Shown here one piece after another: positions 6,250 to 58,151 of a stretch of 64,000 nucleotides of DNA. Positions within the stretch are counted from its first letter, which is position 1; each line of letters opens with the position of its first letter. The stretch spans positions 16,012 to 80,011 of IMG/VR virus record IMGVR_UViG_3300023181_000028; one strand, given 5' to 3'. Under the pieces are notes generated by a model. The model was given only the letters and a program-made list of their open reading frames with translations. It was not told the origin of the DNA and made no database searches. A program made the position numbers and the translations under genes. Source of the stretch: a virus.

Positions 6250-6498
6250 ATGAGAAACAGGACTCCAAGAAAAACAAAAAAGCAATTAGGTAAAATGTTA
6301 ATAATTTACGATAGAGCAGTGCTGCCGATTAACTTATCAATGTTAGACGTTCTAAATAGATTTAAAGACCACAAAGTTTTAGAGTGGGACTCAAGTGCGG
6401 CTGGTAACGTTAGTTGCATGAATATAATGAGTAGGCCAGTAATAATGAATTATAGGAAAGGATTTCAAATAAAAAACAATTCCTTACAAAATCTGTAA
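6250..6498 (+). CDS. portal-fragment protein (paralog of portal residues ~435-478)
   Basis: YDRA..PIN...E.DSSAAGN.S..N: 18/39 ungapped identities with the 46873..49098 product. Confidence 0.8.
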   Translation: MRNRTPRKTKKQLGKMLIIYDRAVLPINLSMLDVLNRFKDHKVLEWDSSAAGNVSCMNIMSRPVIMNYRKGFQIKNNSLQNL

Positions 6499-42929: not shown

Positions 42930-44039
42930 TTATCCCTCAAATTCAGGATTCACTTCTCGCACCTTTTCTTTTAAGCGTTCTAAGTCCTTAATCATGTGTA
43001 TGCCCTTAATATTTAAACGCTTGCCCTCAGTCACCCAGATTAACCTCTCTTCCGCATCCTCAACTATATTAACAGCAGCAGCTTTCTTTAAAGCCTCTTC
43101 CTTAGCCATTAATTCAGCTTCTAAACGCGCAATCCTAGCATCCTTATCATCACCAACAAACGCAGTGTGCTTAACCGGAGTTCTTGTCATAGACTTATCA
43201 GTGTCAGCGTCAACCTTCTTAGTCAACAAATCAATAGTCTGACAAACCTGTGGATACTCTTTTAAATAATCCACTGCCATAACCTCATTTGCTCCCAAAG
43301 GCTGTCCATTGTAATTCCATCCATTAACAACATCCATAGCGATAACACCCGCAGCAACACCTCTTTTAAAGATAGTTAATTCCTTACGTGTTGGACTATC
43401 ATAAATAGCCATAAACGCTTTAGAATCATTCTCTGCCCTTTTAATCACCTCTGCTTGTAATGTTACATCTGAGTTAGCTTCCGGCGGAATACCCAAATTC
43501 CTAGCCATATCATGTAAAGCCTCTCCAAATAACGCCTCAGCAATATCAATAGCCTTACGTTTCTGAACCCTTCCAGATAAAAATACCTGAGCTTCTCTCT
43601 CTTCATCTTTCACCTTATACAAAGGTTTACCCCTCAAATTAGGACTTCCTTCCACGAACAAACTGTTTTTAATCACAGCCCATTTTCTTGCCTGATCTGC
43701 ATCTGCTAAATCAAACACTTCATTCTCATCTAGAATAATCTTTTGGAATTTAATTTTTTTAGTTTCAGGGTCTATTCCGATTGGAATCCCCCAAACAACT
43801 CCCATTTTCCTGTCAATAACAATCTCAAAGAACATTTTAGTTCTATGTCTGTCACCACTTCTCATTGGAGTTAATATGATCTTACCCGTCCTAGAGCAAA
43901 GATCTGGATTGTCTAAGTTTGCAATCCTTGTCTCATTACCTGCGCCATCTTTATATAGCTTGTAATGTACACCTTCTTGATACAGGTCATCCCCTGCCGC
44001 TGTTTTGTTACCTGATGTGAAAAAATTATTTATTTGCAT
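42930..44039 (-). CDS. conserved crAss-like protein downstream of major capsid gene
   Basis: Synteny; FDL.D..Q, Y...DEE.E, W.YNG..LG. Confidence 0.6.
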   Translation of the reverse strand: MQINNFFTSGNKTAAGDDLYQEGVHYKLYKDGAGNETRIANLDNPDLCSRTGKIILTPMRSGDRHRTKMFFEIVIDRKMGVVWGIPIGIDPETKKIKFQKIILDENEVFDLADADQARKWAVIKNSLFVEGSPNLRGKPLYKVKDEEREAQVFLSGRVQKRKAIDIAEALFGEALHDMARNLGIPPEANSDVTLQAEVIKRAENDSKAFMAIYDSPTRKELTIFKRGVAAGVIAMDVVNGWNYNGQPLGANEVMAVDYLKEYPQVCQTIDLLTKKVDADTDKSMTRTPVKHTAFVGDDKDARIARLEAELMAKEEALKKAAAVNIVEDAEERLIWVTEGKRLNIKGIHMIKDLERLKEKVREVNPEFEG

Positions 44040-44102: not shown

Positions 44103-45596
44103 TTAAGATTTATAGATAATACCGCACTCTTGAGTGTTGTAAATAACCATTAAATCTTCTTTTAACATTGCGTATTTCATTACGTCTTCCTCTGAAATCA
44201 TTGTTTCATTGGCACCGGTCATACCGTTAAACTTAGCTGTTACACTTGCACGGTTTAATCCGTTTGCTTCTTTAGCAAGGATTTCCATGTTCATGTTAGA
44301 ACCAGAACCTAAATTCATAATGAATAAGGTAGAGCTTAACAATAGTTTTCCGTCAGCACCTCTCTCAGGGAACGCAGCTTCGTCATCAAACAACGGGTGT
44401 TTAACAAGGATCATTGTGTTACCATTGATGTTGAATTTACCGAAGTTGTATCCGGCATCCACGATTGCACCACCAGCTTGTCCATTTTGAGTTACATTAG
44501 TAACGATTTGGATGTTTTGATTACCAAGTAAGTTAATCAGTTTCTTTTGACCATTTGCATAGCCATCAGTACCGGTAATACCTACCCATGTGAATCCTGA
44601 CACCTTATCGCCTTTTTTCTCAAGTTGACCCATCATGTCAGCGATATCGTCTTCTGTCCACTCTCCGTTTAAGCCTGAACCGTATGCTACGTTACCGCCA
44701 GCAACTTGCTCTTCCCAGCCGTCACCTTGAACGATCTCAAGACCTGTTTCAGTATCAATTAAGTTTGAACTTGCACGGATAGTACCATCAGCATTTTTCA
44801 TACTTGATACACCAAACAACTTGTTACGCTCGTCTTCCATTACGAAAGTAGCTTGCGCTTGCGCTAATTCTTGATACATCCAACCTTTAGAGAAAGCTCC
44901 ACCTTCACCTTCGTAGTTATACCAAAGTACATTTGAAGCAGCTCCACCGGTGATACCAACAGTTTTACGTTGAATAGTCATGTGGTTAACAAACTTACTA
45001 GGCGCAGCCGAACGACCGTAACCACGAAGTGATTTCTCTCCATATGAAGTGTAAACTCCAAAGCAGGTTTTAGTTCCTTGTTGTGGCGCTACGTGAGTTG
45101 CATAGCTAAACAAATCACCAGATGGAGATTGGAAGCTATATAAGTAACCCGCAGAAGGGGAACCTGTAGGGAAAGCCATTACACGAGCGATAAAACGACC
45201 TGTGTAGAAAGCAACGTTCATTCCCGGTACTAAGTGCTTATCGCGCATTAACAACTGGAAAGAACCGTCAGGCTGAGTAGCACCAACTTGTTTAATGATC
45301 TCAGATGCTTTCTCAATACGACCCATAACGTCAAATTGATAAGCGTTTGCTCCGATACCTTTACCTTTAGTTGTTACTTGAGGAATTTTAGTACGCTCAG
45401 GGTTAACGATACCATAAGGTGTTACCGCGCCGGATACTAAGATTGTAGTTAAAGCTCTACGATTCGCATACTCTAACATGTTTCGGATTGCAGGCTTATT
45501 GGCCTGATTTTTCATAAGGTCATTGTTAGTAACACAAGTGTCTTCCGAAAATACACCTTGATTAATACTAATTCTACCTGCGTGTGATGATGGCAT
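44103..45596 (-). CDS. major capsid protein (crAss-type HK97 fold)
   Basis: 497 aa after portal and scaffold; N.MT.QRK, G.G..EQ, TG..G, G..F..F..NG, HPLFDD. Confidence 0.9.
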   Translation of the reverse strand: MPSSHAGRISINQGVFSEDTCVTNNDLMKNQANKPAIRNMLEYANRRALTTILVSGAVTPYGIVNPERTKIPQVTTKGKGIGANAYQFDVMGRIEKASEIIKQVGATQPDGSFQLLMRDKHLVPGMNVAFYTGRFIARVMAFPTGSPSAGYLYSFQSPSGDLFSYATHVAPQQGTKTCFGVYTSYGEKSLRGYGRSAAPSKFVNHMTIQRKTVGITGGAASNVLWYNYEGEGGAFSKGWMYQELAQAQATFVMEDERNKLFGVSSMKNADGTIRASSNLIDTETGLEIVQGDGWEEQVAGGNVAYGSGLNGEWTEDDIADMMGQLEKKGDKVSGFTWVGITGTDGYANGQKKLINLLGNQNIQIVTNVTQNGQAGGAIVDAGYNFGKFNINGNTMILVKHPLFDDEAAFPERGADGKLLLSSTLFIMNLGSGSNMNMEILAKEANGLNRASVTAKFNGMTGANETMISEEDVMKYAMLKEDLMVIYNTQECGIIYKS

Positions 45597-45621: not shown

Positions 45622-46791
45622 TTAATTGCCAAATTCTTTGTCTAATGCTGTCCAATTATCAGTTTCTGTGTTTGTTGGTTGTTTTGATCCACCTCCTGCG
45701 GTTTTCACCGTAGGGATGTTTAAAAGTTTATTAGTGTGATCCGCTTTCGCTTTCTCAGAAACCTTGTTCTTGATATGCGCGACAGCTTTTGCCTCTAACT
45801 CCCTTTTCACTATATACTCCGCTCTACTGCTTGCACTCGACAATTCCTTATCATACACGCCATTGGTGTATTTAGTGATAAGTGCATCCATGACTTTTTT
45901 CGGTATCTTCACTCCCGCAATCTCTTGGATCTTACCAAGCTCATTGATAGTTTCGGTACGTTCTAATGCCTTTTTTTCATCGGCTGCCTTTTGTTTTTGT
46001 GCTGTGTATTTCTGGATTATATTAGTATGCTCTAAGGCCATAGCCTCTTTTTGATTATTTAGTTCAACGCGAATCTTAGCCGCGCTATGGTCAATCTTTC
46101 CGCTCTCAATAAGGTCTTCAATCTCCTTATCAATCATTTCATTAGTCCAATTAGGAATAGTGGCTAATTCAGCTCTCACTAACTCCACATCGTCTAATTT
46201 AAGATAACCTTCAATTTCTTTAGTGGGTTCTAATAGTAAATGATCTGGAACTCCAAGTTCTTTCATTTCTAAAGCAGCCGCCACTTTAGGATCAAGATTA
46301 GCGAAATAAGTTTCTTTGCTTACCTGCGCTTGCTTCTCAGCTTCTGCTTTAGTGATATAAACCTCTTTAAAGGCTTCCGCAGTGTCTTCCTTAATGTCCG
46401 CGCCTAATTTCTGAGCAATGGCTTTAAATGAGTTCTCTGGATATACAATGGGAGCATCTGACTCTTCATCTAATGTTAATTCATCAGCAGTAGCCGCCAA
46501 TTTAGCAGCCTCAATTTCTTCTTTTGTAGATGTTTCAGGTAAGTTTAAAGCCTTAGCTTCTTCTGCCAAAGCAGCTTTATTGGTTTCCTCTAATGCTAAA
46601 GCATCAGCAACGGCTTTTTCTGTTTCGGCTGTTTTCTCGGCAACCTGCTCAGGAGTTTCATCAACATCCTTAGTAATAACTTCTTCTTGTTTCTCTTCCT
46701 GTTTTGGTGTAGCATCCCCAAATTCTTGAGATGAGGTCAATGCGTCCCAATTAGCTTCAACCGTCTCGGTCGATTTATTTGTTTCTGACAT
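45622..46791 (-). CDS. capsid scaffolding-like protein
   Basis: Acidic helical protein between portal and capsid genes. Confidence 0.7.
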   Translation of the reverse strand: MSETNKSTETVEANWDALTSSQEFGDATPKQEEKQEEVITKDVDETPEQVAEKTAETEKAVADALALEETNKAALAEEAKALNLPETSTKEEIEAAKLAATADELTLDEESDAPIVYPENSFKAIAQKLGADIKEDTAEAFKEVYITKAEAEKQAQVSKETYFANLDPKVAAALEMKELGVPDHLLLEPTKEIEGYLKLDDVELVRAELATIPNWTNEMIDKEIEDLIESGKIDHSAAKIRVELNNQKEAMALEHTNIIQKYTAQKQKAADEKKALERTETINELGKIQEIAGVKIPKKVMDALITKYTNGVYDKELSSASSRAEYIVKRELEAKAVAHIKNKVSEKAKADHTNKLLNIPTVKTAGGGSKQPTNTETDNWTALDKEFGN

Positions 46792-49240: not shown

Positions 49241-49261
49241 TTGCAAATATATGCAATTTAT

Positions 49262-51283
49262 TTAAAATCCAAACTTTCCGTGATCTTGCTCTTCATCTTC
49301 CAAATTAAAGTTCTCAGTACGCATCATCAACTCTCCGTTACTACCCATTACAAACTCCGGCAAATCAAATCTATTATCCTTATCCTCATTGTTCTGATCT
49401 CTCGGCCTTACATCACAGCTTATATCTTGCATTAAAGCCAATCCATAAGCATCCGCCAAGTCATTATCACTCCCTATCTCCACCTCATCAAAGTTACCTA
49501 ATTGATTAATTAATTCAGGGAACCAATTATTCTGAACATTATCCACGATATCCGCTTGCATTAAACCGGACATTCTTGGTCTACTAAAATTAGTTAACCT
49601 AACACCCTTCTCATGTGTCTGCTCACTTGTTTCGCTCTCGAACTTTCTAGGACGGTCTGCTAAGAACTTCCATCCGCCATGCTCCCTAAAATATTCCATT
49701 ATAACTCCGGCACCCACATCCACAAGAACATTTCCTATAAGATTGTAATATACAGAAGCCATTAGGCATAACTCATAAAACTTCTCTTTTCGTTTAGGTC
49801 TACATGAAATAACTGCAATAGGAGCCTGAGACATTGCATTGTTAATATGATTAGCCCTTATTCTAATACACATTGCCCCTAATGATTTAGAGGCTTTAGC
49901 GGTGTCCTGGTCATAAGAATCAAGGCCGCTCGTGTGCAAATTCTGATAGCCTTTACGCGGATGCTCACCATCTATAATCCAAATACATTCATCTTGGTTA
50001 TCAAATGGTTTTAAAGGGGTGCAAATAACAGCCAAAGGCATTTTAATCATACCCTTGTCATCTTTCACCCATTCCATCTTATACTTAGTCCATCTTGGAT
50101 GTTCTAAAGCGTCAATTATAGCCATTTGATTGTTTAACTTCTCTATATCAAAGTTGTTAACCACTGTCTTTCGGAAGATTTCAGTTTCATTTAAAGGGTT
50201 ATTCTGTAAGTCCTCGTTGTATTCCTTTAGGTTGCCAGCTTTTAAGAATGCTGCCCTTCTATCCACAATAGCCTTTTCCGCCAAAGCTAAATCTTCCACC
50301 CCTTGTAATTGGAATGGTTTATATTTTTTAAGTAAGTCAGATTGAGTAGGAAGCCTTCTATTTGCCTCAGTTGCATTGCCATAAAAATACATTCTAGGCG
50401 CGGGAATTAAGAATTTAATCATTCCATAACTAGGATCGCTTGCGTTAGACCACAGCTTCTTAAAATCCCTAGAACCCTTGTTGACGTTGCCCCCGGTGCC
50501 AAAAAATAGCCCCATTCCGACCTTTTGACTACCATTCATTAAACAGTCATTAGTGGCGGATTTAAACTCTAACAACTTCTCAAACTCTCCAATCTCCTCC
50601 GCGATAACATCATTCAAATAAAGACCCTTAAACATATTAGGGTTAATGTGCATTGTTCTGGCATATATAGTATTCTTAGTTCCCTGCTCTTCAAAAGCTC
50701 CTAATGAATTACGAATATTGTATCCAGCGATAATCTCATCATCGTTGTCCAACAACTTCTTAACAGAAAACTCAGGAGGCATACCGCTATCCGCAAATCT
50801 CCATTTAGAAAGAAAATCATCTACGTAAGTTTTATTACCCGCGGCAACCCCTCCCTTATAACCCGGAAAGAATCTCCATCCATAATCAATAACCATTGTA
50901 CTGGCAGCCTCAGAAATACCCTTTCTACGGCCTTTAGCGCATACTATATCCTTTCCGACACTCTTAGCATATTCAATCAAATAAGCAAGCTCTAAATGCA
51001 AATCTATCATGTCAGGGGTGATAACCCCCTTAATGGTAGACATTCTTTTATAATTAATATAGAAATAGAACCTTCCAGGTATAAATACTCCTCCTGTTTG
51101 ATATCCGTGTATACACCTTCTTAACTCCTCAGTCCAGTACTCTTCCCATGCAGGGGTTCCGATAACTCTTTTATCTCTTATAGAGTCAGCATATTTAGGA
51201 ATGCCATATTTAATTACAGGGGCAGGCTCAAATCCCTTTCCTTTAAAATACGGAGCGCGGAGAACTATAGGACTTGAACTCAT
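49262..51283 (-). CDS. terL: terminase large subunit
   Basis: K.RRKG.S Walker A-like, VIAEEIG Walker B, FGTGG, GLDSY and D..DA nuclease motifs. Confidence 0.92.
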   Translation of the reverse strand: MSSSPIVLRAPYFKGKGFEPAPVIKYGIPKYADSIRDKRVIGTPAWEEYWTEELRRCIHGYQTGGVFIPGRFYFYINYKRMSTIKGVITPDMIDLHLELAYLIEYAKSVGKDIVCAKGRRKGISEAASTMVIDYGWRFFPGYKGGVAAGNKTYVDDFLSKWRFADSGMPPEFSVKKLLDNDDEIIAGYNIRNSLGAFEEQGTKNTIYARTMHINPNMFKGLYLNDVIAEEIGEFEKLLEFKSATNDCLMNGSQKVGMGLFFGTGGNVNKGSRDFKKLWSNASDPSYGMIKFLIPAPRMYFYGNATEANRRLPTQSDLLKKYKPFQLQGVEDLALAEKAIVDRRAAFLKAGNLKEYNEDLQNNPLNETEIFRKTVVNNFDIEKLNNQMAIIDALEHPRWTKYKMEWVKDDKGMIKMPLAVICTPLKPFDNQDECIWIIDGEHPRKGYQNLHTSGLDSYDQDTAKASKSLGAMCIRIRANHINNAMSQAPIAVISCRPKRKEKFYELCLMASVYYNLIGNVLVDVGAGVIMEYFREHGGWKFLADRPRKFESETSEQTHEKGVRLTNFSRPRMSGLMQADIVDNVQNNWFPELINQLGNFDEVEIGSDNDLADAYGLALMQDISCDVRPRDQNNEDKDNRFDLPEFVMGSNGELMMRTENFNLEDEEQDHGKFGF

Positions 51284-51810
51284 TTATTCTTTAAAATATT
51301 ATCGTATTGTTTAGAGCTAGCCTGAATCTTCTCTAGCCACGAAAGAGTCATTTTACCCTTCACTACACCCTCATTTAACGTTTCCTCGTCGATTTCCTTC
51401 TCTAAAGCCGCAATACTCTGCCTCAATGAGGCAATAGCATCTGTGGTCTTTTTTACAGATGTAGGACTGTCGTCATTTTCAAGTAATTGTAAGAACTTGT
51501 CAATCTTTTGCTGATATTTCCGCGACACCTCAATCTTTGGATTGTATTGAAGCCTCATGTAATCATCAACGGCCTTAACTATCTTATTGCTTTCCCAAAA
51601 TTTAGGAATATTGTCATCAAAGGCATGATACATTGCCTTTCTCTTTCTCTCGTGATCGGGAAACTGTTTATAAATCGAATGATAATCGCAATGTAACACC
51701 ACCGCCAGCATCTCTTTCTCAGTTAAGGCTTCAAAGGAGATAACCATTTTCATCACCTCCGGTCTCAAGATCTGGTTATTGCGATGGTCAATTTCTATTA
51801 AGTAACTCAT
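51280..51810 (-). CDS. putative terminase small subunit
   Basis: DY.S.Y, helical, V.G C-terminal strand; coupled to terL. Confidence 0.5.
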   Translation of the reverse strand: MSYLIEIDHRNNQILRPEVMKMVISFEALTEKEMLAVVLHCDYHSIYKQFPDHERKRKAMYHAFDDNIPKFWESNKIVKAVDDYMRLQYNPKIEVSRKYQQKIDKFLQLLENDDSPTSVKKTTDAIASLRQSIAALEKEIDEETLNEGVVKGKMTLSWLEKIQASSKQYDNILKNK

Positions 51811-51986
51811 GTAGATTTTTTTATTATAGATTTCACTTCACGCCAAAACACCTTACCTAAAGTGTCTACCTGAGTCATTATAGTGTCAATAGCTATACAG
51901 CAACACCTCTGTACCTCCTCCGAATTTAAGTCATCAAACTCACTGTACTTATAATATAACTCATCTGCCTGTTCTTGTGGACTCAT
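51807..51986 (-). CDS. small phage protein (59 aa, not in ORF track)
   Basis: MSPQEQADEL...C..IAID.I...FW.EVK. Confidence 0.7.
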   Translation of the reverse strand: MSPQEQADELYYKYSEFDDLNSEEVQRCCCIAIDTIMTQVDTLGKVFWREVKSIIKKST

Positions 51987-52143
51987 AGTTCAATTTTTTA
52001 ATTTCTGTTTTTAAGGAATCAATCTTAAATATTAGATACACCTCCCTGTCATGATTCTTCTTCATTTCCTTGTACGCCACGCCTAGATACACTAAACAAA
52101 GTAAGCATATTCCCGCGATTATAGTTTCTCTAGCCCTGTCCAT
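51961..52143 (-). CDS. small TM + coiled-coil protein
   Basis: N-terminal hydrophobic helix. Confidence 0.6.
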   Translation of the reverse strand: MDRARETIIAGICLLCLVYLGVAYKEMKKNHDREVYLIFKIDSLKTEIKKLNYESTRTGR

Positions 52144-52931
52144 TAAAACGCCTCCAATTCCGGTAATTGCACCGGCTCTAATTCGTTAATAATCTTTTCT
52201 TTGAAGTAATCTAGTAAATCTTTAATATCCCTTTTTAAATAGGTCATAGGTATCACCTTGTTTGTATATTGTATTACCTTGCCCGTAACATCCTTTTTAG
52301 GGATAATCATATCTACAAACATCCTTTCACATTTTCTGCCGGTAAGCAACTCAAAATGATAAGCGTAATACGATAATTGTATATTGATTTTGGAATACTT
52401 CGTGTTTGGCAAATGGTCTAATGGATAATTAAGCCATGCCTGACCTTTAGACTCATAACTCATACCCTTATCAAAACATTTAAAGTCGCTGATATGAAAC
52501 TTACTATCCTTTCTATTGCTACATAACGCCAACTTATCTAAACTTCCAGCAGTTCTCGTAATAGTATTATACACTACCAATTGCTCATGACAGCTATGAT
52601 AGTCTTTATACTTACCTAAAACGTGTTCAACGATACCCTTTAAATCCCTATCAGATTCCAATATTTGACCCGTCTGAGCGTATAACTCAAGCGCGGCATC
52701 TATACGCGTACCTTCATCAGTTGCATTGCTCCATTGGCCTAAAACAGCCTCCTTTGATCTACCTTCTGACTTTGCCACCTGCCCGGCTATAAAATTAGCA
52801 TCGAATTTAGGTACGAGGAAGTTATAAAGTCGGCTGAACGACATATATTCCTTTCCTTCGTTATCGAAGTACTTGTGAACTTTCTCGTCCAGCCGAACTT
52901 TTTGGTCATATAAGTTATGAATCCTTGACAT
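52143..52931 (-). CDS. PD-(D/E)XK exonuclease
   Basis: HKY, GT.I, E..V, AGSLD, ISDFK, QLS.Y. Confidence 0.8.
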   Translation of the reverse strand: MSRIHNLYDQKVRLDEKVHKYFDNEGKEYMSFSRLYNFLVPKFDANFIAGQVAKSEGRSKEAVLGQWSNATDEGTRIDAALELYAQTGQILESDRDLKGIVEHVLGKYKDYHSCHEQLVVYNTITRTAGSLDKLALCSNRKDSKFHISDFKCFDKGMSYESKGQAWLNYPLDHLPNTKYSKINIQLSYYAYHFELLTGRKCERMFVDMIIPKKDVTGKVIQYTNKVIPMTYLKRDIKDLLDYFKEKIINELEPVQLPELEAF

Positions 52932-53671
52932 TAAAACGCTTCGTCTTCGTCTGTTATTACTGGAACTTCTGCTTTAACCTCTTTGGATTTCTTAGGCTTT
53001 TTAGTTTCAGATAGCGTTACTTCGCCACCATCCAACTCAAACTCCTCTTCAACTACAATAGAAAGATCTTCCGCCAATTCTGAATTGTGAATAATGATAC
53101 TACCGAACTTGTTTTCCAAAAGGCTTGTAGCGAAATCGCGTTGCTCATCAAGAGTTAATCCGTTAAATGTGTCCATTGTCATAGACTTCTCTTTTCCGGC
53201 CTCAATCCATCTTTGAGTTAATTCTTCGTCACTCACTTTTTTCTCACCCTCCAAATACAATTTGGTTTCAGTTAGGATATCCTTAGCGATAGCCACAACA
53301 TCTTCATAACCCTCATAATTGTCGATTTCCTCCACTTTAGGAGTGTTTAGCTTAATGTTCTTGTTCCCGAACACTTCTCTTTCTCCGTGCAATACAAAGC
53401 CCTCTGAATCAAATTCCAACCCTACAACCTGAGTCTCATAAAGCATGAATTTCATCTGATCTTCATCCTTTTGATTAGACATTTGACAAATATTCAATAA
53501 GTGAATACGAAGGTCTTTAAATAAATCTTCTAAGTCTTTATGGATTGGGTCTTTCGGCGACTTCACCATATCCGTGTTAGAAATTCTCTTTCCTTTTGTT
53601 TCAGGGAGGATGTAAACGACTTTTGCGCCATTAAACCCGTTGTTTTTTAGGGTGATCTTTTTTATATTCAT
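52931..53671 (-). CDS. conserved hypothetical protein
   Basis: IKKI.L, PIH.DL, LNTP, E...Y..G.K; acidic tail. Confidence 0.7.
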   Translation of the reverse strand: MNIKKITLKNNGFNGAKVVYILPETKGKRISNTDMVKSPKDPIHKDLEDLFKDLRIHLLNICQMSNQKDEDQMKFMLYETQVVGLEFDSEGFVLHGEREVFGNKNIKLNTPKVEEIDNYEGYEDVVAIAKDILTETKLYLEGEKKVSDEELTQRWIEAGKEKSMTMDTFNGLTLDEQRDFATSLLENKFGSIIIHNSELAEDLSIVVEEEFELDGGEVTLSETKKPKKSKEVKAEVPVITDEDEAF

Positions 53672-54006
53672 TTTTCGTTATTTACTTGTTTAATTCCAGT
53701 TGGTTGGTATAATCCGGTTTTAGTCATTCTAATAAATTCTTCCTCTATAACAGATTTGAATTTATCAATACCCTCTTCTCCCGTAATAATTATACATTTT
53801 TTCTCTTCCGCCTCAACTTGCCTAAACCAATCTCCCTCATCATCGTCTATTTCATCTGGATGATTAGCGTAATAATTTTTCATTCTTTCATTATCCATAC
53901 GCCATTTATCCAATTCTTCACCCTCCATGATAATACTATCATCAAATGGACTTGCCATGTAATTAAATGTCCGGCGTTGTTGATATTCATCGTTACTAGC
54001 ACTCAT
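53668..54006 (-). CDS. hypothetical protein with capsid-like motifs
   Basis: M..ER.K, GD.W..QV, ITG..G colinear with capsid residues 253-345. Confidence 0.6.
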   Translation of the reverse strand: MSASNDEYQQRRTFNYMASPFDDSIIMEGEELDKWRMDNERMKNYYANHPDEIDDDEGDWFRQVEAEEKKCIIITGEEGIDKFKSVIEEEFIRMTKTGLYQPTGIKQVNNEK

Positions 54007-54284
54007 GCCTTATTATTTAATTTATTATAAAAATCTTCGTTTATGAAGCCTTCCGACTTACCATCCTCAAAATTATACCACAAAACTTGACTTTCCCCAG
54101 ACCCACTTATTGTAAATGTTTTTCTCTGAATAGTCATGTGGTTAACCCATTTGTTTTTCGGCGGAGAAGGTAAACAGGTTTTTAATTCATCTTCTTTTGA
54201 AATTAAAAACTCCGGCACATTAGATTTAATCGCCGCGCCAACAAATAATACTCCTAAAGTTTTTAAGAAGCCTCCCCTATTCAT
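54003..54284 (-). CDS. capsid-fragment protein with Tat-like/hydrophobic N-terminus
   Basis: K.VNHMTIQRKT..I.G...S.VLWYN.E, 20/29 identical to capsid residues 201-229. Confidence 0.8.
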   Translation of the reverse strand: MNRGGFLKTLGVLFVGAAIKSNVPEFLISKEDELKTCLPSPPKNKWVNHMTIQRKTFTISGSGESQVLWYNFEDGKSEGFINEDFYNKLNNKA

Positions 54285-54547
54285 ACCTCAATATTTAATA
54301 TTTGATTATCTGTGACAAACTTAACCTTACTCCTGTAATCCTTAAATATCAATATGTAAGGCATTACTGTATCATTAGCAGTGATGAACATATAAACATG
54401 AAAAGGTCTATCCTCCGCCATATCATATCCCATACTCTCCGCGATTAAACAAGGATCTCTCTCCGTCATTGAATAAAGATCGTTAATAGCCATTTCAGTT
54501 GACCACCAGTCTATAATACCGTGTTTAGTGAACTCCTCTTTTAGCAT
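54281..54547 (-). CDS. hypothetical protein
   Basis: Likely start MLKEEF overlapping upstream stop. Confidence 0.6.
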   Translation of the reverse strand: MLKEEFTKHGIIDWWSTEMAINDLYSMTERDPCLIAESMGYDMAEDRPFHVYMFITANDTVMPYILIFKDYRSKVKFVTDNQILNIEV

Positions 54548-54639
54548 ATAGACTTTATTACCCAAATTAACACTCCAACTATTAATATCACCCAAGCGAA
54601 TGTATCCCAATCGGGATTCTCATTGTAACTGTAATCCAT
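54541..54639 (-). CDS. 32-aa single-TM peptide (not in ORF track)
   Basis: MDYSYNENPDWDTFAWVILIVGVLIWVIKSIC. Confidence 0.5.
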   Translation of the reverse strand: MDYSYNENPDWDTFAWVILIVGVLIWVIKSIC

Positions 54640-54652
54640 CAAATTTACTCCT

Positions 54653-55093
54653 TTATTTATTAATATTCAAATTAATTGTATTATTATGCAATTCCTTGTA
54701 GTCGTTAATATAACTCTCAACTGTCTCTTTATAACCCTTGCTATCCCGCATAGTCTGTTTTACCTTCTTACAATAGAATACCATAGATGAATGATCTCTT
54801 CCGCCGTAAAACTGCCCTATCTCTCCCAATGTGAATTGATACCCATAGATTGCCCGTGTCACATACACGCATATCTCCCTCACCCTTGCGTTATCCTGAT
54901 GCCTGGCCTTATCCCTTACATTCTCTAATCTAGCCCTCATCCGGTTACAAACATATTCTCCCACTGCCATAATGCATTCAGAAGCATCGGCTGTTAATTC
55001 CTGTTGAACCTTAGGTACTAAGTAATATTCTTCCTTGATCCGCGCCACTACATTCTCTGTAATAGCTTTTAATTGAACTTCTGTTAGTTTCAT
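54653..55093 (-). CDS. DnaA C-terminal (domain IV) HTH protein
   Basis: R.ICVY..R.....TL.EIG..YGGRDHSSM......V. Confidence 0.85.
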   Translation of the reverse strand: MKLTEVQLKAITENVVARIKEEYYLVPKVQQELTADASECIMAVGEYVCNRMRARLENVRDKARHQDNARVREICVYVTRAIYGYQFTLGEIGQFYGGRDHSSMVFYCKKVKQTMRDSKGYKETVESYINDYKELHNNTINLNINK

Positions 55094-55683
55094 GCTTGTC
55101 TAAAATTAAATCCGTGAAACTCATAACTCTGTTGCGGCGGAGCTTCATCAAACTTATAATGAACACTCATCAAACATTCCCCGCATTCCCTCAAGAATTT
55201 AATATTATCCTTAATCCCCTCTATCTCCCTCTCAATATTAACTACATTGTTCTTTACAACCTGCAACACAACTCCCGATTCCCCACTTAGCCTTTTAACG
55301 ACCTTATTAAGCTTATTTAATTGTTTCTGACACTCCAGTACCTTATTCTCATTATCGTCCACCATAAGGCCATTATATTCCCTAAACTCCTGTATTAAGT
55401 CCTTATAATCCACATCATTCTGCGCGATAATATTCATAAAGATCTGCTGAACATATTGACTAAACTTAAGATCAAAGCTTTCCATCTCCTCATCTCCCGT
55501 CCGGTCATATTTATCCCTTCTGACCTTATCCCGTAAAACCATATACGCGCGGTTAACCTCAATCATGTCCTCATGACTACCACCCTTATCTTCATGCTTT
55601 TCTTTAGCCATATCTTTATAAGCTTGTTTTATTTCCTGTTGCGTGGCGTTCTTATCCACACCTAGTATTTCGTATAATGTCAT
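55090..55683 (-). CDS. J-domain (DnaJ-like) protein, HPD replaced by HED
   Basis: LYEILGV...AT..EIK.AY...A...HEDK...VN.AY.VL.D...R..YD..G. Confidence 0.85.
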   Translation of the reverse strand: MTLYEILGVDKNATQQEIKQAYKDMAKEKHEDKGGSHEDMIEVNRAYMVLRDKVRRDKYDRTGDEEMESFDLKFSQYVQQIFMNIIAQNDVDYKDLIQEFREYNGLMVDDNENKVLECQKQLNKLNKVVKRLSGESGVVLQVVKNNVVNIEREIEGIKDNIKFLRECGECLMSVHYKFDEAPPQQSYEFHGFNFRQA

Positions 55684-55685
55684 AA

Positions 55686-56612
55686 TTACAGCATCCAATA
55701 CTGTTCCCACAGCGCGCGGTTAACTTTAAGAGATGTTTCAGCGTCTTTAGTCTCGTGGAAATACAAATGATATTCATCCTTGTTTCTTTCGCAGAAAATT
55801 AATTCGTCCACCTGTCTGCGAACAACCCCAACATAATTTTTAGATAAAGGCTTTCCTTCATTTGCTTTAGCGCAAATATGACTCAACTGTGCAAATGCAA
55901 GGGCGGATAAAGCTTGTTTCTCGGTGCGGTATTGATTTTTAAACCACGGATGAGCTATAGTATTACAAGCTTTTTTAACGTTAAGTTTTGATAAAGCTCC
56001 GTTGGTAAGAAGCTCAATGTAATGCCCCGGCTCAAAACTCTCCTCCCATGTAAACCCTTCCTTACCATCTAATTCTTCTTTAGAGAAGTTATCGAGTAGG
56101 AATTTAAGAATTGACGTGTTAATCAGGCTGTTTGAAGTGACAAGAACGCCAACGCCCGCACTTTCAACTTTCGGCTGACAATTATTCCACATCTCCCGCG
56201 CTGTTTCAAGACTCATAGTGATCGGACGTGAATCTGATTTATTTGGTGAAGACGTAGCGTTAAAATAACCATGACCGTTACCGCATCTCTTTCTAAACCT
56301 ATCCACCCTCTCCGACTGACTCATCTCTTTATCCAAAACAGCATCCGCAATGTAATCACTTCCTAGTTTTTGAGCCACAAAGTCAACTCCCGAAAGCTCT
56401 ATAAACTTGTCGATGGTTAATGCTTTTCCGAATGAAAATTTTAAGCAAGCAAGATCTTTTTCGTTATCTATTCCATAATAACGACCAACATCAAACCCCT
56501 CATATTCTATATGACCCTCTTTATCATTCAAATACCTAATCACAGTATCTTTAAATCTCTGACTTCCGTCATTGCGAACCGACCAGCTCTCTGGTAATCT
56601 GTTTTCTTTCAT
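55686..56612 (-). CDS. hypothetical mosaic protein
   Basis: Start MKENRLPE. Confidence 0.65.
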   Translation of the reverse strand: MKENRLPESWSVRNDGSQRFKDTVIRYLNDKEGHIEYEGFDVGRYYGIDNEKDLACLKFSFGKALTIDKFIELSGVDFVAQKLGSDYIADAVLDKEMSQSERVDRFRKRCGNGHGYFNATSSPNKSDSRPITMSLETAREMWNNCQPKVESAGVGVLVTSNSLINTSILKFLLDNFSKEELDGKEGFTWEESFEPGHYIELLTNGALSKLNVKKACNTIAHPWFKNQYRTEKQALSALAFAQLSHICAKANEGKPLSKNYVGVVRRQVDELIFCERNKDEYHLYFHETKDAETSLKVNRALWEQYWML

Positions 56613-56898: not shown

Positions 56899-56924
56899 AC
56901 GTTATACATTACATTAAGGTTTCA
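56899..56924 (-). promoter_or_regulatory. ECF-type promoter
   Basis: TGAAAC-N17-CGT, ATG 12 nt downstream. Confidence 0.65.
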
Positions 56925-58115
56925 TTTATATTCATAAATAATACTCAACCCCTCCGGTCCCGTCACCCTACTCAAAGCCACATACAACTGCTCCTTCTGA
57001 AAGCACGGCCTAGTCAAATCCACAGTCACCTCCTCAAATGTCATCCCCTGGCTCTTATGAATACTCAACGCATAAGCCAACCTTATCGGATACTGCTCAA
57101 TACTCCCCAATTCCTGCAACTCCAAACTACCATACTTATCCGCCAACACATACTCCTTCTTAGTGAAAGTCATCCTATCCAAACTATATTCCTCATTCTC
57201 CACCCTTATAAAGAACCTGTCCTCCCCATTCATCTCCCTCACCACAAAAGTCCCAATCGTCCCGTTAACCAACGGATTATTCTTACTATTCGCCAAATAC
57301 ATTATCCTAGCCCCGTCCTTAACCCTAACCTCACTCTCCAAATTAAAATCATCAGCCTTCACATTCCCATCCACCTTCGCCACAAACACCCATTCCTTCC
57401 CCTCAATCTTTGCCAACCCCTCCTCATTGTATTTCTTTACAGTGCTATTGTAAGGAGCCAAGATAATCCCCTTCTCTCCCTTTCCTATAAACCTCTTAAA
57501 ATAAGGACTCCTCTTCCCATCCCTCACCTTATTCAAAGCCTCTATAAACTCCTCATCACTCTGCCTCAATATCTCATCCAACTCCACATCCACTACCCCC
57601 AACTTCTCATAACACCCCGCATCATAAAACCTATACCCCTCATAACCCTTCAACAAAACACTCCTTAAATTATCATACATAACCGGCGGCAACTGCTTCA
57701 AATCCCCCACAAACACCACCTGCTTCTCCCACAAATCCCCACACCAATTCTTGACCATAGTCCAATTAATCGCATCCAACAAATCCGGCCTCAACATACT
57801 CACCTCATCTATAAAAAACACATCCACAGCCTTTATCATTCTCCTCTTCTCAGTCCTCAAAAAATTAACACTCTTATAATCACTAACCCCAAAAGGATTT
57901 ATAGCAAACATACTATGTATCGTCTGACCGCCTATATTATTAGCAGCTATCCCCGTAGGAGCTATCGCCACAACCTTCTTACCCCTCCTCTTCAACTCCT
58001 CCATCACATCCCTTACAATCCAACTCTTACCCGTACCAGCCTTCCCACTCAAATAACAACTACTGCCACCCAATACCAATTCTCTAAACTCTTCTTGTTT
58101 CTTACTATATCCCAT
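56922..58115 (-). CDS. Pif1/RecD-like SF1B helicase
   Basis: GKAGTGKS, APTGIAA, TIHS, IDEVSM, GDLKQLPPV, RQ, HKSQG.T, QLYVALSR. Confidence 0.92.
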   Translation of the reverse strand: MGYSKKQEEFRELVLGGSSCYLSGKAGTGKSWIVRDVMEELKRRGKKVVAIAPTGIAANNIGGQTIHSMFAINPFGVSDYKSVNFLRTEKRRMIKAVDVFFIDEVSMLRPDLLDAINWTMVKNWCGDLWEKQVVFVGDLKQLPPVMYDNLRSVLLKGYEGYRFYDAGCYEKLGVVDVELDEILRQSDEEFIEALNKVRDGKRSPYFKRFIGKGEKGIILAPYNSTVKKYNEEGLAKIEGKEWVFVAKVDGNVKADDFNLESEVRVKDGARIMYLANSKNNPLVNGTIGTFVVREMNGEDRFFIRVENEEYSLDRMTFTKKEYVLADKYGSLELQELGSIEQYPIRLAYALSIHKSQGMTFEEVTVDLTRPCFQKEQLYVALSRVTGPEGLSIIYEYK

Positions 58116-58126
58116 AAACACCTTAT

Positions 58127-58151
58127 ACCCCATTATTCAAATAAGGTTGCA
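58127..58151 (-). promoter_or_regulatory. ECF-type promoter variant (GGT) for helicase
   Basis: TGCAAC-N16-GGTATAAGG, ATG 11 nt after GGT. Confidence 0.6.

Follow-up and report, generated by a model that had tools for sequence, protein, structure and literature searches.

[quoted passage not shown] It lies in the 64,000-nucleotide stretch of DNA analysed here (the window), and the comparisons described below show that it is a genuine accessory gene under selection, carried by a crAss-like phage of 80 kb that comes from leaf litter. They also show that it belongs to a gene family with a single origin, namely an ancient partial copy of the MCP gene (residues ~198–263) that was fused behind a leader and a linker. 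As to function, our best guess, which is tentative, is that the ORF93 family acts as an envelope-targeted mimic or decoy of the capsid. The features discussed are listed in Table 1.

Table 1. Positions in the window of ORF93, its parts, its neighbours and the parental capsid gene.
Feature	Position	Strand	Description	Basis
ORF93	54003..54284	minus	93 aa, ATG start	ORF listing and sequence
ORF93 leader, residues 1–24	54213..54284	minus	Tat-like, degenerate: NRGGFLK + TLGVLFVGAAI + KSNVP	
ORF93 linker, residues 25–45	54150..54212	minus	Length varies in the family; here EFLISKEDELK	Family alignment
ORF93 MCP-like segment, residues 42–91	54012..54161	minus	Homologous to MCP 198–263	hhalign, BLASTP
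20-bp stretch	54127..54146		Identical to 44971–44990 in the MCP gene, VNHMTIQ codons	
MCP gene	44103..45596	minus	497 aa, crAss-type HK97 fold	PF23898, phrog_11589, AF2
MCP residues 198–263, parental segment	44808..45005	minus	Strands 201–215 and 224–240, spine helix 242–261	AF2
ORF109, upstream neighbour	54281..54610	minus	Stop overlaps ORF93 start (ATGA); weak homolog in G002	
ORF112, downstream neighbour	53668..54006	minus	Acidic, no family; start overlaps ORF93 stop (ATGA)	
Replaceable cassette, ORF93 + ORF112	53686..54280		595 bp, exchanged in a close relative	
Promoter-like site, Bacteroidota-type (TTTG-N-TAnnTTTG)	54640..54671	minus	In the gap before ORF109	

A family of stand-alone capsid fragments

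The original prediction described a 93-residue ORF in which a Tat-like or membrane leader is fused to a capsid peptide. The ATG-started frame is confirmed, and so is the peptide match, with 20 of 29 residues identical to MCP 201–229, ten of them consecutive (VNHMTIQRKT). In a single BLASTP comparison the similarity covers ORF93 residues 31–73 and MCP residues 187–229 (23/43 identical, E 4e-13). A profile (HMM) search of 1.84 billion representatives recovered about 25 full-length small homologs, and a word-indexed search enlarged the family to a total of 41 non-redundant members of 62–126 aa. Family members within IMG/VR records came only from whole-record searches; scanning viral, metagenome and genome collections for patterns yielded nothing but MCP genes. 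A three-part architecture is common to the family, consisting of the Tat-type leader, a conserved linker (..V-x-FIEKK..), and the MCP-like segment, with a hairpin motif in 38 of the 41 members; identity to ORF93 is only 28–50%, and the hairpin and leader are nonetheless retained. Alignment of the family with the MCP family by hhalign places the segment at MCP 198–263 (63 columns, probability 99.5%, E 2.8e-22), and the family invariants N48, Q53, R54 and G61 (ORF93 numbering) correspond to MCP N204, Q209, R210 and G217. The fusion of leader and capsid peptide is thus not only upheld but strengthened, as it is the conserved architecture of an entire gene family.

Conventional databases largely pass over these proteins. 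For the small protein, our searches of Pfam, PHROGs, NCBIfam and PADLOC turned up no entry, nor did we find a paper describing it. ORF93 itself is without a match in PHROGs and in Pfam, Crass_capsid (PF23898) included, and has neither a DNA match nor a protein match among GenBank phages; PADLOC gave no match for ORF93, for four nearby ORFs, or for the family member P0125. Five of 25 members match PF23898 at E<1 (P0125 reaches 15.7 bits, below the cut-off of 27), and in PHROGs the members match only a major-head-protein family (three members) and a family of virion structural proteins (one member). The profile also matched some long proteins, among them P0128 and P0159, but these are unrelated and consist of FG-GAP/VCBS-like 'DLLWYN' repeats. 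A second MCP-like element, 'HPMFD', considered in P0141, P0144, P0145 and ORF102 of G011, does not reach significance (E 1.1); in the follow-up of this element the first strand alone aligns in P0145.

The identity of the parental gene is clear. The MCP scores 69.6 bits against PF23898 (cut-off 27), matches phrog_11589 (major head protein), and has as the best structural match of its AF2 model the phicrAss001 capsid (7qof_A, E 4e-21); the closest isolates by MCP are the FpV4-like phages of Flavobacterium psychrophilum, at 25% identity. Residues 198–263 rank among the best-conserved stretches of the MCP family, both among the listed homologs and in a 60-sequence alignment, and come just after the crass-specific insertion domain. 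In phicrAss001 this I-domain is a crass-specific insertion in the E-loop, residues 79–180 (PMC10172136). Candidate HK97 labels for MCP 198–240 are the E-loop return arm or strands of the P-domain.

A 20-bp exact DNA match between ORF93 and the MCP gene had also been pointed out; it is real, and shuffled sequences are expected to give none. Exact runs of 19–21 bp are seen as well between ORF93 and the MCP genes of other phages (21 bp for L018/L019, 20 bp for L050 and L017), and ORF93 uses the same codon as the MCP of its own phage at only 9 of 20 identical-residue codons. These codon and other-phage comparisons indicate that the match simply follows from conservation of the VNHMTIQ peptide and a shared bias in codon use. 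We therefore reject recent gene conversion between ORF93 and the MCP gene of this phage, and the 20-bp identity cannot be taken to indicate a recent duplication. The picture for co-variation of the capsid fragment with the MCP of its own phage is mixed: in the window and in G006 no MCP matches the capsid-fragment protein better than that of its own phage (best or tied), but this is not so in G009, and P0136/P0037, a pair assumed solely because their contigs have the same length, shows no co-variation with the MCP.

It could be argued that ORF93 is a non-functional relic that has stayed open by chance, being either what is left of a partly duplicated capsid gene in decay or a product of faulty assembly. 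ORF93 does lack the twin arginine and a match to the Tat HMM, and the 90% clusters of the family are small, with one to three members each, as such a relic might be expected to show. This explanation is largely refuted, and we consider it highly improbable, for several reasons. First, there are 41 diverged and intact members with an identical three-part architecture, whose invariant positions are those of the MCPs, and synonymous divergence is seen with the peptide retained; the gene is thus not unique to this genome and diverging neutrally, as the original prediction had allowed. Secondly, ATGA start/stop overlaps, read from the sequence, couple ORF93 to both of its neighbours, and the gene is syntenic in four phages. 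Thirdly, a 21.4-kb Logan contig from an independent assembly (depth 18) covers positions 51500–54988 with 0 differences, and because it spans the whole gene ORF93 is not a chimera, the other possibility raised at the outset.

The Tat-type leader

The N-terminus MNRGGFLKTLGVLFVGAA had been likened to a Tat signal with one arginine lacking. It is present, and the second Arg of the motif is missing, such that ORF93 has N-R-G-G-F-L-K, with no consecutive twin arginines, where the Tat motif has S/T-R-R-x-F-L-K. The family consensus is M-x-RRGFLK-x-LG-x-L...A-x-IP, and the twin arginine (RR; RRGFLK) is found in 27 of the 41 members; the 14 members without it, including ORF93, show R-G, R-L or R-K. 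TIGR01409, a Tat HMM, does not match ORF93 even when E values as high as 10 are admitted. Among 25 members, 14 match PF10518 and 15 match TIGR01409, and four of nine tested (P0130, P0135, P0146 and P0153) exceed the curated NCBI Tat cut-off of 16.7 bits, the other five scoring 12.5–16.0 bits. The leader is the best-conserved part between ORF93 and its nearest homolog, and is identical at 19 of 24 residues between ORF93 and P0002, whereas BLASTP aligns the two proteins at 47% identity. In all members the hydrophobic core is 11 residues long (mean Kyte-Doolittle 1.5–2.4), and small residues stand just before the conserved I-P in the family alignment. The original prediction of a 'membrane-tethered capsid epitope' therefore holds as regards an export- or membrane-type leader; the tethering is doubtful, since a core of about 11 residues points to a signal peptide more than to a membrane anchor.

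Two further ideas on the leader were rejected. A shift to Sec, with a more hydrophobic core offsetting the loss of RR, is not seen, there being no difference in the core (p = 1.0). Derivation of the leader from the MCP N-arm (residues 47–60) is also discarded; this is where the top-scoring local alignment lies, but its E is 0.29 and its probability 0.2%.

The AF2 model of ORF93 (pTM 0.27) has a helix at residues 3–22 and shows the hairpin region as coil, so that the isolated fragment is predicted not to fold. A complex prediction of the MCP with ORF93 residues 20–93 scored 0.00, which weighs neither for nor against binding.

The combination of a Tat signal with a segment that has its homolog within a larger protein would fit a Tat 'hitchhiker' escort, in which the fragment would carry a folded, signal-less partner (an MCP monomer, an auxiliary capsid protein, or a host protein) through the Tat pore, or would jam the translocon against host export. 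Among the feature neighbours in the ESM Atlas are Rieske Tat-signal clusters (0.80) and the small subunit of a periplasmic [Fe]-hydrogenase (0.86), and because both scores are below 0.9 we treat these Tat proteins as leads only. A capsid protein in the periplasm has no rationale, jamming of the translocon would need no conservation of capsid residues, and the RR is gone in a third of the members; we thus regard the escort explanation as very unlikely.

Genomic location and distribution

The family gene is accessory and cassette-like, and occurs in only some relatives. In the window it is located at the 5′ edge of a head-morphogenesis block with the order ORF246-ORF262-ORF176-TerL-portal-scaffold-MCP, and it has the same syntenic place in G006, G009 and G011, the MCPs of which are about 50% identical to that of the window; GIY-YIG homing endonucleases come after the family gene in G006 and G009. 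Within the head block of the window the scaffold gene occupies 45622–46791, and a putative auxiliary protein is encoded nearby at 42930–44039. It is absent from the syntenic slot in L004 and L006, and is absent from G024 (a complete record) and G007 (91%-complete). A ~92%-identical phage that comes from a different sample (run X2) has 374 unrelated bases in place of the 595-bp cassette of ORF93 and ORF112, with a joint 53685->54281, and the limits of the swap fall exactly on gene borders. The promoter-like site to the 5′ side of ORF109 is a weak, positional lead, as there are six matches in the window against 3.8 expected, and it may head a unit extending from ORF109, ORF93 and ORF112 onwards, possibly to TerL. 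We also note that the same genome contains an 82-aa partial copy of its own portal (E 3e-9), and that G006 has a homolog of the portal copy 3.3 kb away from its capsid-fragment gene.

Small, swappable, accessory genes are typical of superinfection exclusion (e.g. T4 Imm/Sp, TP-J34 Ltp and T5 Llp), and the small size of the ORF93 family together with its accessory, swappable distribution in a variable region would suit an exported exclusion or competition factor. The signal would be cleaved, and the resulting periplasmic peptide of about 70 aa would bind a virion protein of incoming related phages and block genome delivery; a suitable target would be a virion protein that packs against the copied MCP surface, such as an ejected internal protein. 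The Tat signal given by the curated HMM in several members is in keeping with this, as are the small-x-small residues before the conserved I-P, a possible signal-peptidase site. However, the gene is beside late head genes rather than among early ones, the leader is conserved beyond what is expected of a cleaved signal, a third of the members are without RR, and we know of no contact partner of the copied MCP segment that reaches the periplasm. Exclusion is therefore an unlikely role.

The location is also pertinent to a role in head assembly, because the gene starts the head-gene block in four divergent phages and possibly shares a promoter with the downstream head genes. Here the protein would act on the cytoplasmic side as a modulator or tether, with the leader on the membrane or the TatBC receptor, and the segment would pair with the MCP, an auxiliary protein or a scaffolding protein at a neighbour-strand site; procapsid assembly would thereby be localised, timed or capped, or the assembly of a co-infecting relative poisoned. 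The residues retained by the family are exactly those invariant in the MCPs, presumably kept for capsid-lattice contacts, and the conservation of the leader exceeds that of a generic signal peptide. That a third of the members lack RR suggests that export may not be the point, and a fragment predicted to be unfolded alone is as expected if it becomes ordered only on a partner. On the other hand, Tat-type signals usually mean export, and the patchy distribution and the cassette swaps between close relatives indicate that the gene is dispensable for making capsids; no description of a Tat-tethered capsid assembly factor was found as a precedent. We consider an assembly function somewhat unlikely.

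A possible decoy and its relation to known systems

Bacterial sensors (Lit/Gol, CapRel, PifA and Avs) classically respond to the capsid and portal proteins of phages, and it is against this background that we tentatively favor a capsid mimic or decoy. We speculate that the leader takes the protein to the cytoplasmic membrane or the Tat translocon, with the canonical RR members going across; in ORF93, where the twin arginine is lost (RG), export may be inefficient or by another route. The exposed capsid segment would be a molecular mimic, strand-pairing with whatever recognises an MCP element that is hard to mutate. The decoy would thus bind a host factor that senses the conserved capsid element, and either keep it at the membrane or remove it from the cytoplasm, with its action timed to the onset of capsid protein accumulation.

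Several observations fit less well with a decoy. First, the 14 of 41 members without a twin arginine, ORF93 among them, would be unusual among true Tat substrates. Secondly, the MCP-like invariants suit binding to the MCP or other capsid proteins, as in the assembly explanation, at least equally, and the co-variation with the own MCP is mixed. Thirdly, a carrier of the trigger epitope could itself switch on the sensor. Finally, in phicrAss001-type capsids the equivalent MCP segment is covered by the auxiliary protein as well as by the insertion domain (PMC10172136); it is buried in the assembled capsid and offers no exposed epitope, so that a sensor would need unassembled MCP.

A broader form of the decoy reading can be put forward, in which a clade of crAss-like phages has dedicated structural-protein mimics, the Tat-targeted capsid fragments and the portal fragments, that would capture the immune sensors of capsid and portal; the capsid mimic would draw on Tat transport of folded complexes to keep its sensor at the membrane or drive it out of the cytoplasm. 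We think it improbable that this holds in full. If it is true, it would constitute a new anti-defence principle, with a trigger decoy that exports or sequesters the sensor.

What is new is a conserved stand-alone phage gene that shows a fragment of the phage's own capsid behind an export signal; duplication of entire structural genes is known from phages, and sensing of capsids and portals from bacteria. If the protein is a decoy, it pinpoints the capsid element read by a putative Bacteroidota immune sensor and represents a new route of disarming it; if it is an assembly factor, it would connect the building of crassvirus heads with the membrane or with the Tat machinery. The family also provides a small, testable handle (~90 aa, with clear mutable motifs) on a very abundant and poorly cultivated group of phages.

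The ORF93 family has points in common with several known systems. Compared with Tat signals (TIGR01409/PF10518), its consensus M-x-R-R-G-F-L-K, followed by a short, mildly hydrophobic core rich in Gly, Ala and Ser, fits S/T-R-R-x-F-L-K, but the leader is very short, with about 17–20 residues to the conserved I-P, is better conserved than usual signal peptides, and has as its passenger a virus capsid fragment rather than an enzyme. It is homologous to residues 198–263 of crAss-type MCPs (PF23898; phicrAss001 gp32, PDB 7QOF) and has the same invariants, but has only about 65 of some 500 residues; without the A-domain, I-domain and N-arm, the family protein cannot form a shell.

Like the triggers of T4 Gol/Lit, CapRel and PifA, the fragment is a short, conserved, internal MCP stretch that makes a standalone recognisable unit. 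Gol, in contrast, is part of T4 gp23, with no separate gene and no export signal; to our knowledge none of the Gol/Lit, CapRel and PifA systems involves a stand-alone phage capsid-fragment gene, and we found no paper on a capsid-fragment decoy. Periplasmic hydrogenase small subunits have a Tat signal and bind a signal-less partner, which is thereby carried along by hitchhiking. The ORF93 proteins resemble the [FeFe]/[NiFe] hydrogenase small subunits in being small, bearing a Tat signal, and corresponding to a piece of a larger, single-chain relative, but have no sequence relation to them, and partner binding is here only putative. Lastly, T4 Imm/Sp, TP-J34 Ltp and T5 Llp are likewise small, signal-bearing, accessory and patchy in distribution, although they are not copies of the phages' own structural proteins, whereas the ORF93 gene encodes a capsid fragment and adjoins the late head genes.

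ORF93 and its match to the capsid protein

The product of ORF93 matches the phage's own crAss-type major capsid protein (MCP), with 23 of 43 residues identical between ORF93 residues 31–73 and MCP 187–229 (E 4e-13); the count in the original prediction, 20 of 29 residues with ten consecutive identities, was correct on re-examination. The 20-bp DNA identity between 44971–44990 and 54127–54146 is also real, none being expected by chance. It is explained by conservation of the peptide VNHMTIQ and a shared codon bias: a specific relationship to the phage's own MCP gene is ruled out by exact runs of 19–21 bp, as long or longer, common to ORF93 and the MCP genes of other phages, and by codon use, the same codon as in the own MCP occurring at only 9 of the 20 identical-residue codons. 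The duplication of the capsid segment is an old one.

The source is an 80,011-bp IMG/VR virus record, complete according to CheckV, and a leaf-litter metagenome is the only public run containing the whole stretch. A second assembly of the data, a 21.4-kb Logan contig of depth 18 whose run may be the source sample, has no differences over 51500–54988 and also includes the MCP copy of the 20-mer; since it spans ORF93 intact, the assembly chimera that had been raised as a possible explanation is ruled out. The ORF93 start overlaps the stop codon of ORF109 upstream, and its stop overlaps the start of ORF112 downstream (ATGA in both cases).

Features of the window around ORF93, the MCP and the portal-derived ORF
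Feature	Position	Strand	Matches
ORF93	54003-54284	minus	
MCP, 497 aa	44103-45596	minus	Pfam PF23898 Crass_capsid, 69.6 bits (cut-off 27); phrog_11589 (major head protein); AlphaFold model (pLDDT 67.8), top match phicrAss001 capsid 7qof_A, E 4e-21
ORF146, 146 aa, DnaA C-terminal helix-turn-helix protein	54653-55093	minus	PF08299, E 1e-11
ORF206, 206 aa, J-domain protein	55090-55710	minus	PF00226, E 4e-15
PIF1-like helicase	56922-58133	minus	PF05970, E 6e-24
82-aa portal-derived ORF	6250-6498	plus	portal residues 437-498, 21/62 identical, E 3e-9

A family of small proteins with a leader and a capsid-like segment

A word-indexed search returned a single homolog, P0002 (77 aa, 47% identical), with leader and capsid-like peptide both retained, and a profile of these two sequences recovered about 25 small proteins matching end to end among 1.84 billion representatives. 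With members from one further search, and three found by searching related IMG/VR records as a whole, the family has 41 non-redundant members of 62–126 aa, so the ORF is not unique to this genome. None of Pfam, PHROG, NCBIfam and PADLOC has a family covering such proteins, and the sole database matches of the ORF93 family are sub-threshold, to capsid and Tat-signal models. The originally proposed fusion of a leader to a capsid peptide is right, and is the common plan of the family: a leader (M-x-RRGFLK-x-LG-x-L-...-A-x-IP), a linker of variable length (..V-x-FIEKK..) and a capsid-like segment (FVNHMTIQRKTV-x-ITG-x-A-x-S-x-V-x-WY-x-F), which longer members continue with G[FW]... and ..ER-K-x-WF. 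The gene of the related phage G011 (L078:1294-1602, minus strand) is a variant that retains the Tat-type leader and lacks the capsid-like hairpin. It forms a branch with P0144 and P0145, in which another C-terminal part (..LI-x-W-x-D...N-x-TVV-H-x-PMFDG..), without significant match to the MCP, follows or replaces the first strand.

The leader is unusually conserved, with 19 of 24 residues identical between ORF93 and P0002 (47% overall by BLASTP). Pfam TAT_signal matches 14 of 25 members (best E 5e-4) and TIGR01409 matches 15 of 25, and the curated Tat cut-off is exceeded by four of the nine members tested individually; a Tat-HMM search with ORF93 itself gave no match. As predicted, the ORF93 N-terminus is Tat-like with one Arg too few, the R-R pair being present in 27 of 41 members and absent from the rest, such as ORF93 (R-G) and P0002 (R-G-R). 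Going by these sequences, the family ancestor evidently had a Tat signal. A more hydrophobic core was looked for in members without R-R and not seen, and the core is only about 11 residues long, not enough to anchor the protein stably in a membrane. That the protein is a Tat hitchhiker or a Tat jammer we consider very unlikely. The leader's likeness to the MCP N-arm is not significant (E 0.29).

Profile-profile comparison of the family alignment with that of 60 MCPs equates family columns 42–104 with MCP 198–263 (probability 99.5%, E 2.8e-22), among the most conserved stretches of the MCP family. In the MCP model a confident beta-rich domain (residues 85–183) is followed by strands at 201–215 and 224–240, their tip of low confidence, and a long helix at 242–261; in the phicrAss001 structure the E-loop carries an inserted beta-barrel I-domain, residues 79–180, a feature common to crassviruses (PMC10172136). 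Together these place the copied piece between the I-domain/E-loop and the spine helix. On the model, it is the strand pair joining the two and the start of that helix, MCP 201–240 being putatively either the E-loop return arm or P-domain strands. The family's invariant or near-invariant N48, I52, Q53, R54 and G61 correspond to MCP N204, I208, Q209, R210 and G217. Among the 60 MCPs, Q209, R210 and G217 never vary and N204 hardly does; the constraints on the fragment are therefore those that apply within the capsid protein. By itself the fragment is predicted not to fold (pTM 0.27), with the hairpin region as coil.

Genomic setting and mobility

The minus-strand order runs from the PIF1-like helicase, after intervening genes, through ORF206, ORF146, ORF109, ORF93, ORF112, ORF246, ORF262 and ORF176 to a 673-aa putative TerL, portal, scaffold and MCP; the DnaA_C, J-domain and PIF1-like genes all lie just upstream of the ORF93–ORF112 cassette. 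The TerL, portal and scaffold labels come from size and gene order, with a weak PHROG head-morphogenesis match for the scaffold, and a Pfam search of the putative TerL and portal gave no match. Two sites of the Bacteroidota promoter type, TTTG-N(17-23)-TAnnTTTG, were noted on the minus strand: one at 54640–54671, in the gap that precedes ORF109, and one at 49244–49273, immediately before the portal gene. They hint at a Bacteroidota host and at transcription-unit limits, a weak lead, as the window holds six matches where 3.8 are expected, a count not above chance.

In G006, G009 and G011 (MCP identity to that of the window about 50%), the family gene likewise stands at the 5′ edge of the conserved head block, in the same orientation. 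Two other relatives (L004, L006) have different small genes at the corresponding place, and whole-record searches found no family gene in the complete record G024 or the 91%-complete G007. In a phage about 92% identical, from another sample and study, 53686–54280 (ORF93 and ORF112) is swapped for 374 unrelated bases exactly at the gene borders. This patchy presence, the swap, and divergence with intact motifs indicate that the gene is dispensable, cassette-mobile between genomes and old, having diverged with its motifs kept; a relic is hardly probable. Dispensability also counts against a membrane-side capsid assembly modulator binding the MCP or its partners, which we regard as rather doubtful, although the invariants shared with the MCP and the position adjoining the head genes speak for it.

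In the same 92%-identical phage (a leaf-litter sample), 260 other bases take the place of ORF206 (window 55093–55695), and there is a 293-base insertion at 52925–52930; this is gene-by-gene mosaicism ahead of the head genes. The next gene downstream of the family gene in G006 (L052:467-1360, minus) and G009 (L056:1773-2645, plus) resembles a GIY-YIG homing endonuclease with NUMOD-like repeats by motifs read by eye, the G009 candidate and the capsid-fragment gene sharing a 4-bp overlap. At the corresponding place the window lacks a homing endonuclease gene. A crAss-type MCP belonging to this MCP family is also encoded by a 55.5-kb contig (L051, CAZEMX010000002.1) assigned to the MAG 'uncultured Nitrososphaerota archaeon'; the contig is probably of phage origin and misbinned.

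Possible functions and relation to known systems

The portal-derived ORF of the window has no signal peptide, and its homolog in G006 (L082, G006:C1:48983-49186, minus; 85-aa frame, E 2e-7) lies 3.3 kb from the capsid-fragment gene. Small stand-alone copies of structural-protein pieces therefore recur in this clade.

ORF93 is a selected accessory small protein that combines an export-type leader with a capsid-derived contact element, and we infer that it would work as a mimic of that element, at the cytoplasmic membrane or past it. Tentatively, and ahead of the other readings, it could be a decoy that draws off a host sensor of the conserved capsid element, the sensor being kept at the membrane or carried through it; this would account for the accessory occurrence of the gene, for the keeping of exactly those residues that are hard to mutate, for the accompanying portal fragment and for the homing endonucleases nearby. 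A 2026 study reports that anti-defence loci are amplified by a T-even homing endonuclease (PMC13096335), a parallel to the endonucleases beside the family gene and not evidence. A periplasmic exclusion factor is unlikely, and the remaining probability falls to functions outside these five readings. The functions first suggested, sequestering a capsid-sensing immune protein or nucleating or poisoning procapsid assembly at the membrane, are among the live hypotheses.

Literature searches found no stand-alone gene encoding a fragment of a phage's own capsid protein. ORF93 resembles Tat/signal-peptide pre-proteins at one end and a piece of HK97 capsid proteins at the other, but belongs to neither family by the families' own criteria. 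Nearest in concept are immune triggers derived from capsids, such as the T4 Gol peptide, the small subunits of hydrogenases, which take partners along through Tat, and small envelope exclusion proteins; none is a stand-alone gene for an own-capsid fragment. The finding is real and larger than first reported, and the architecture is new.
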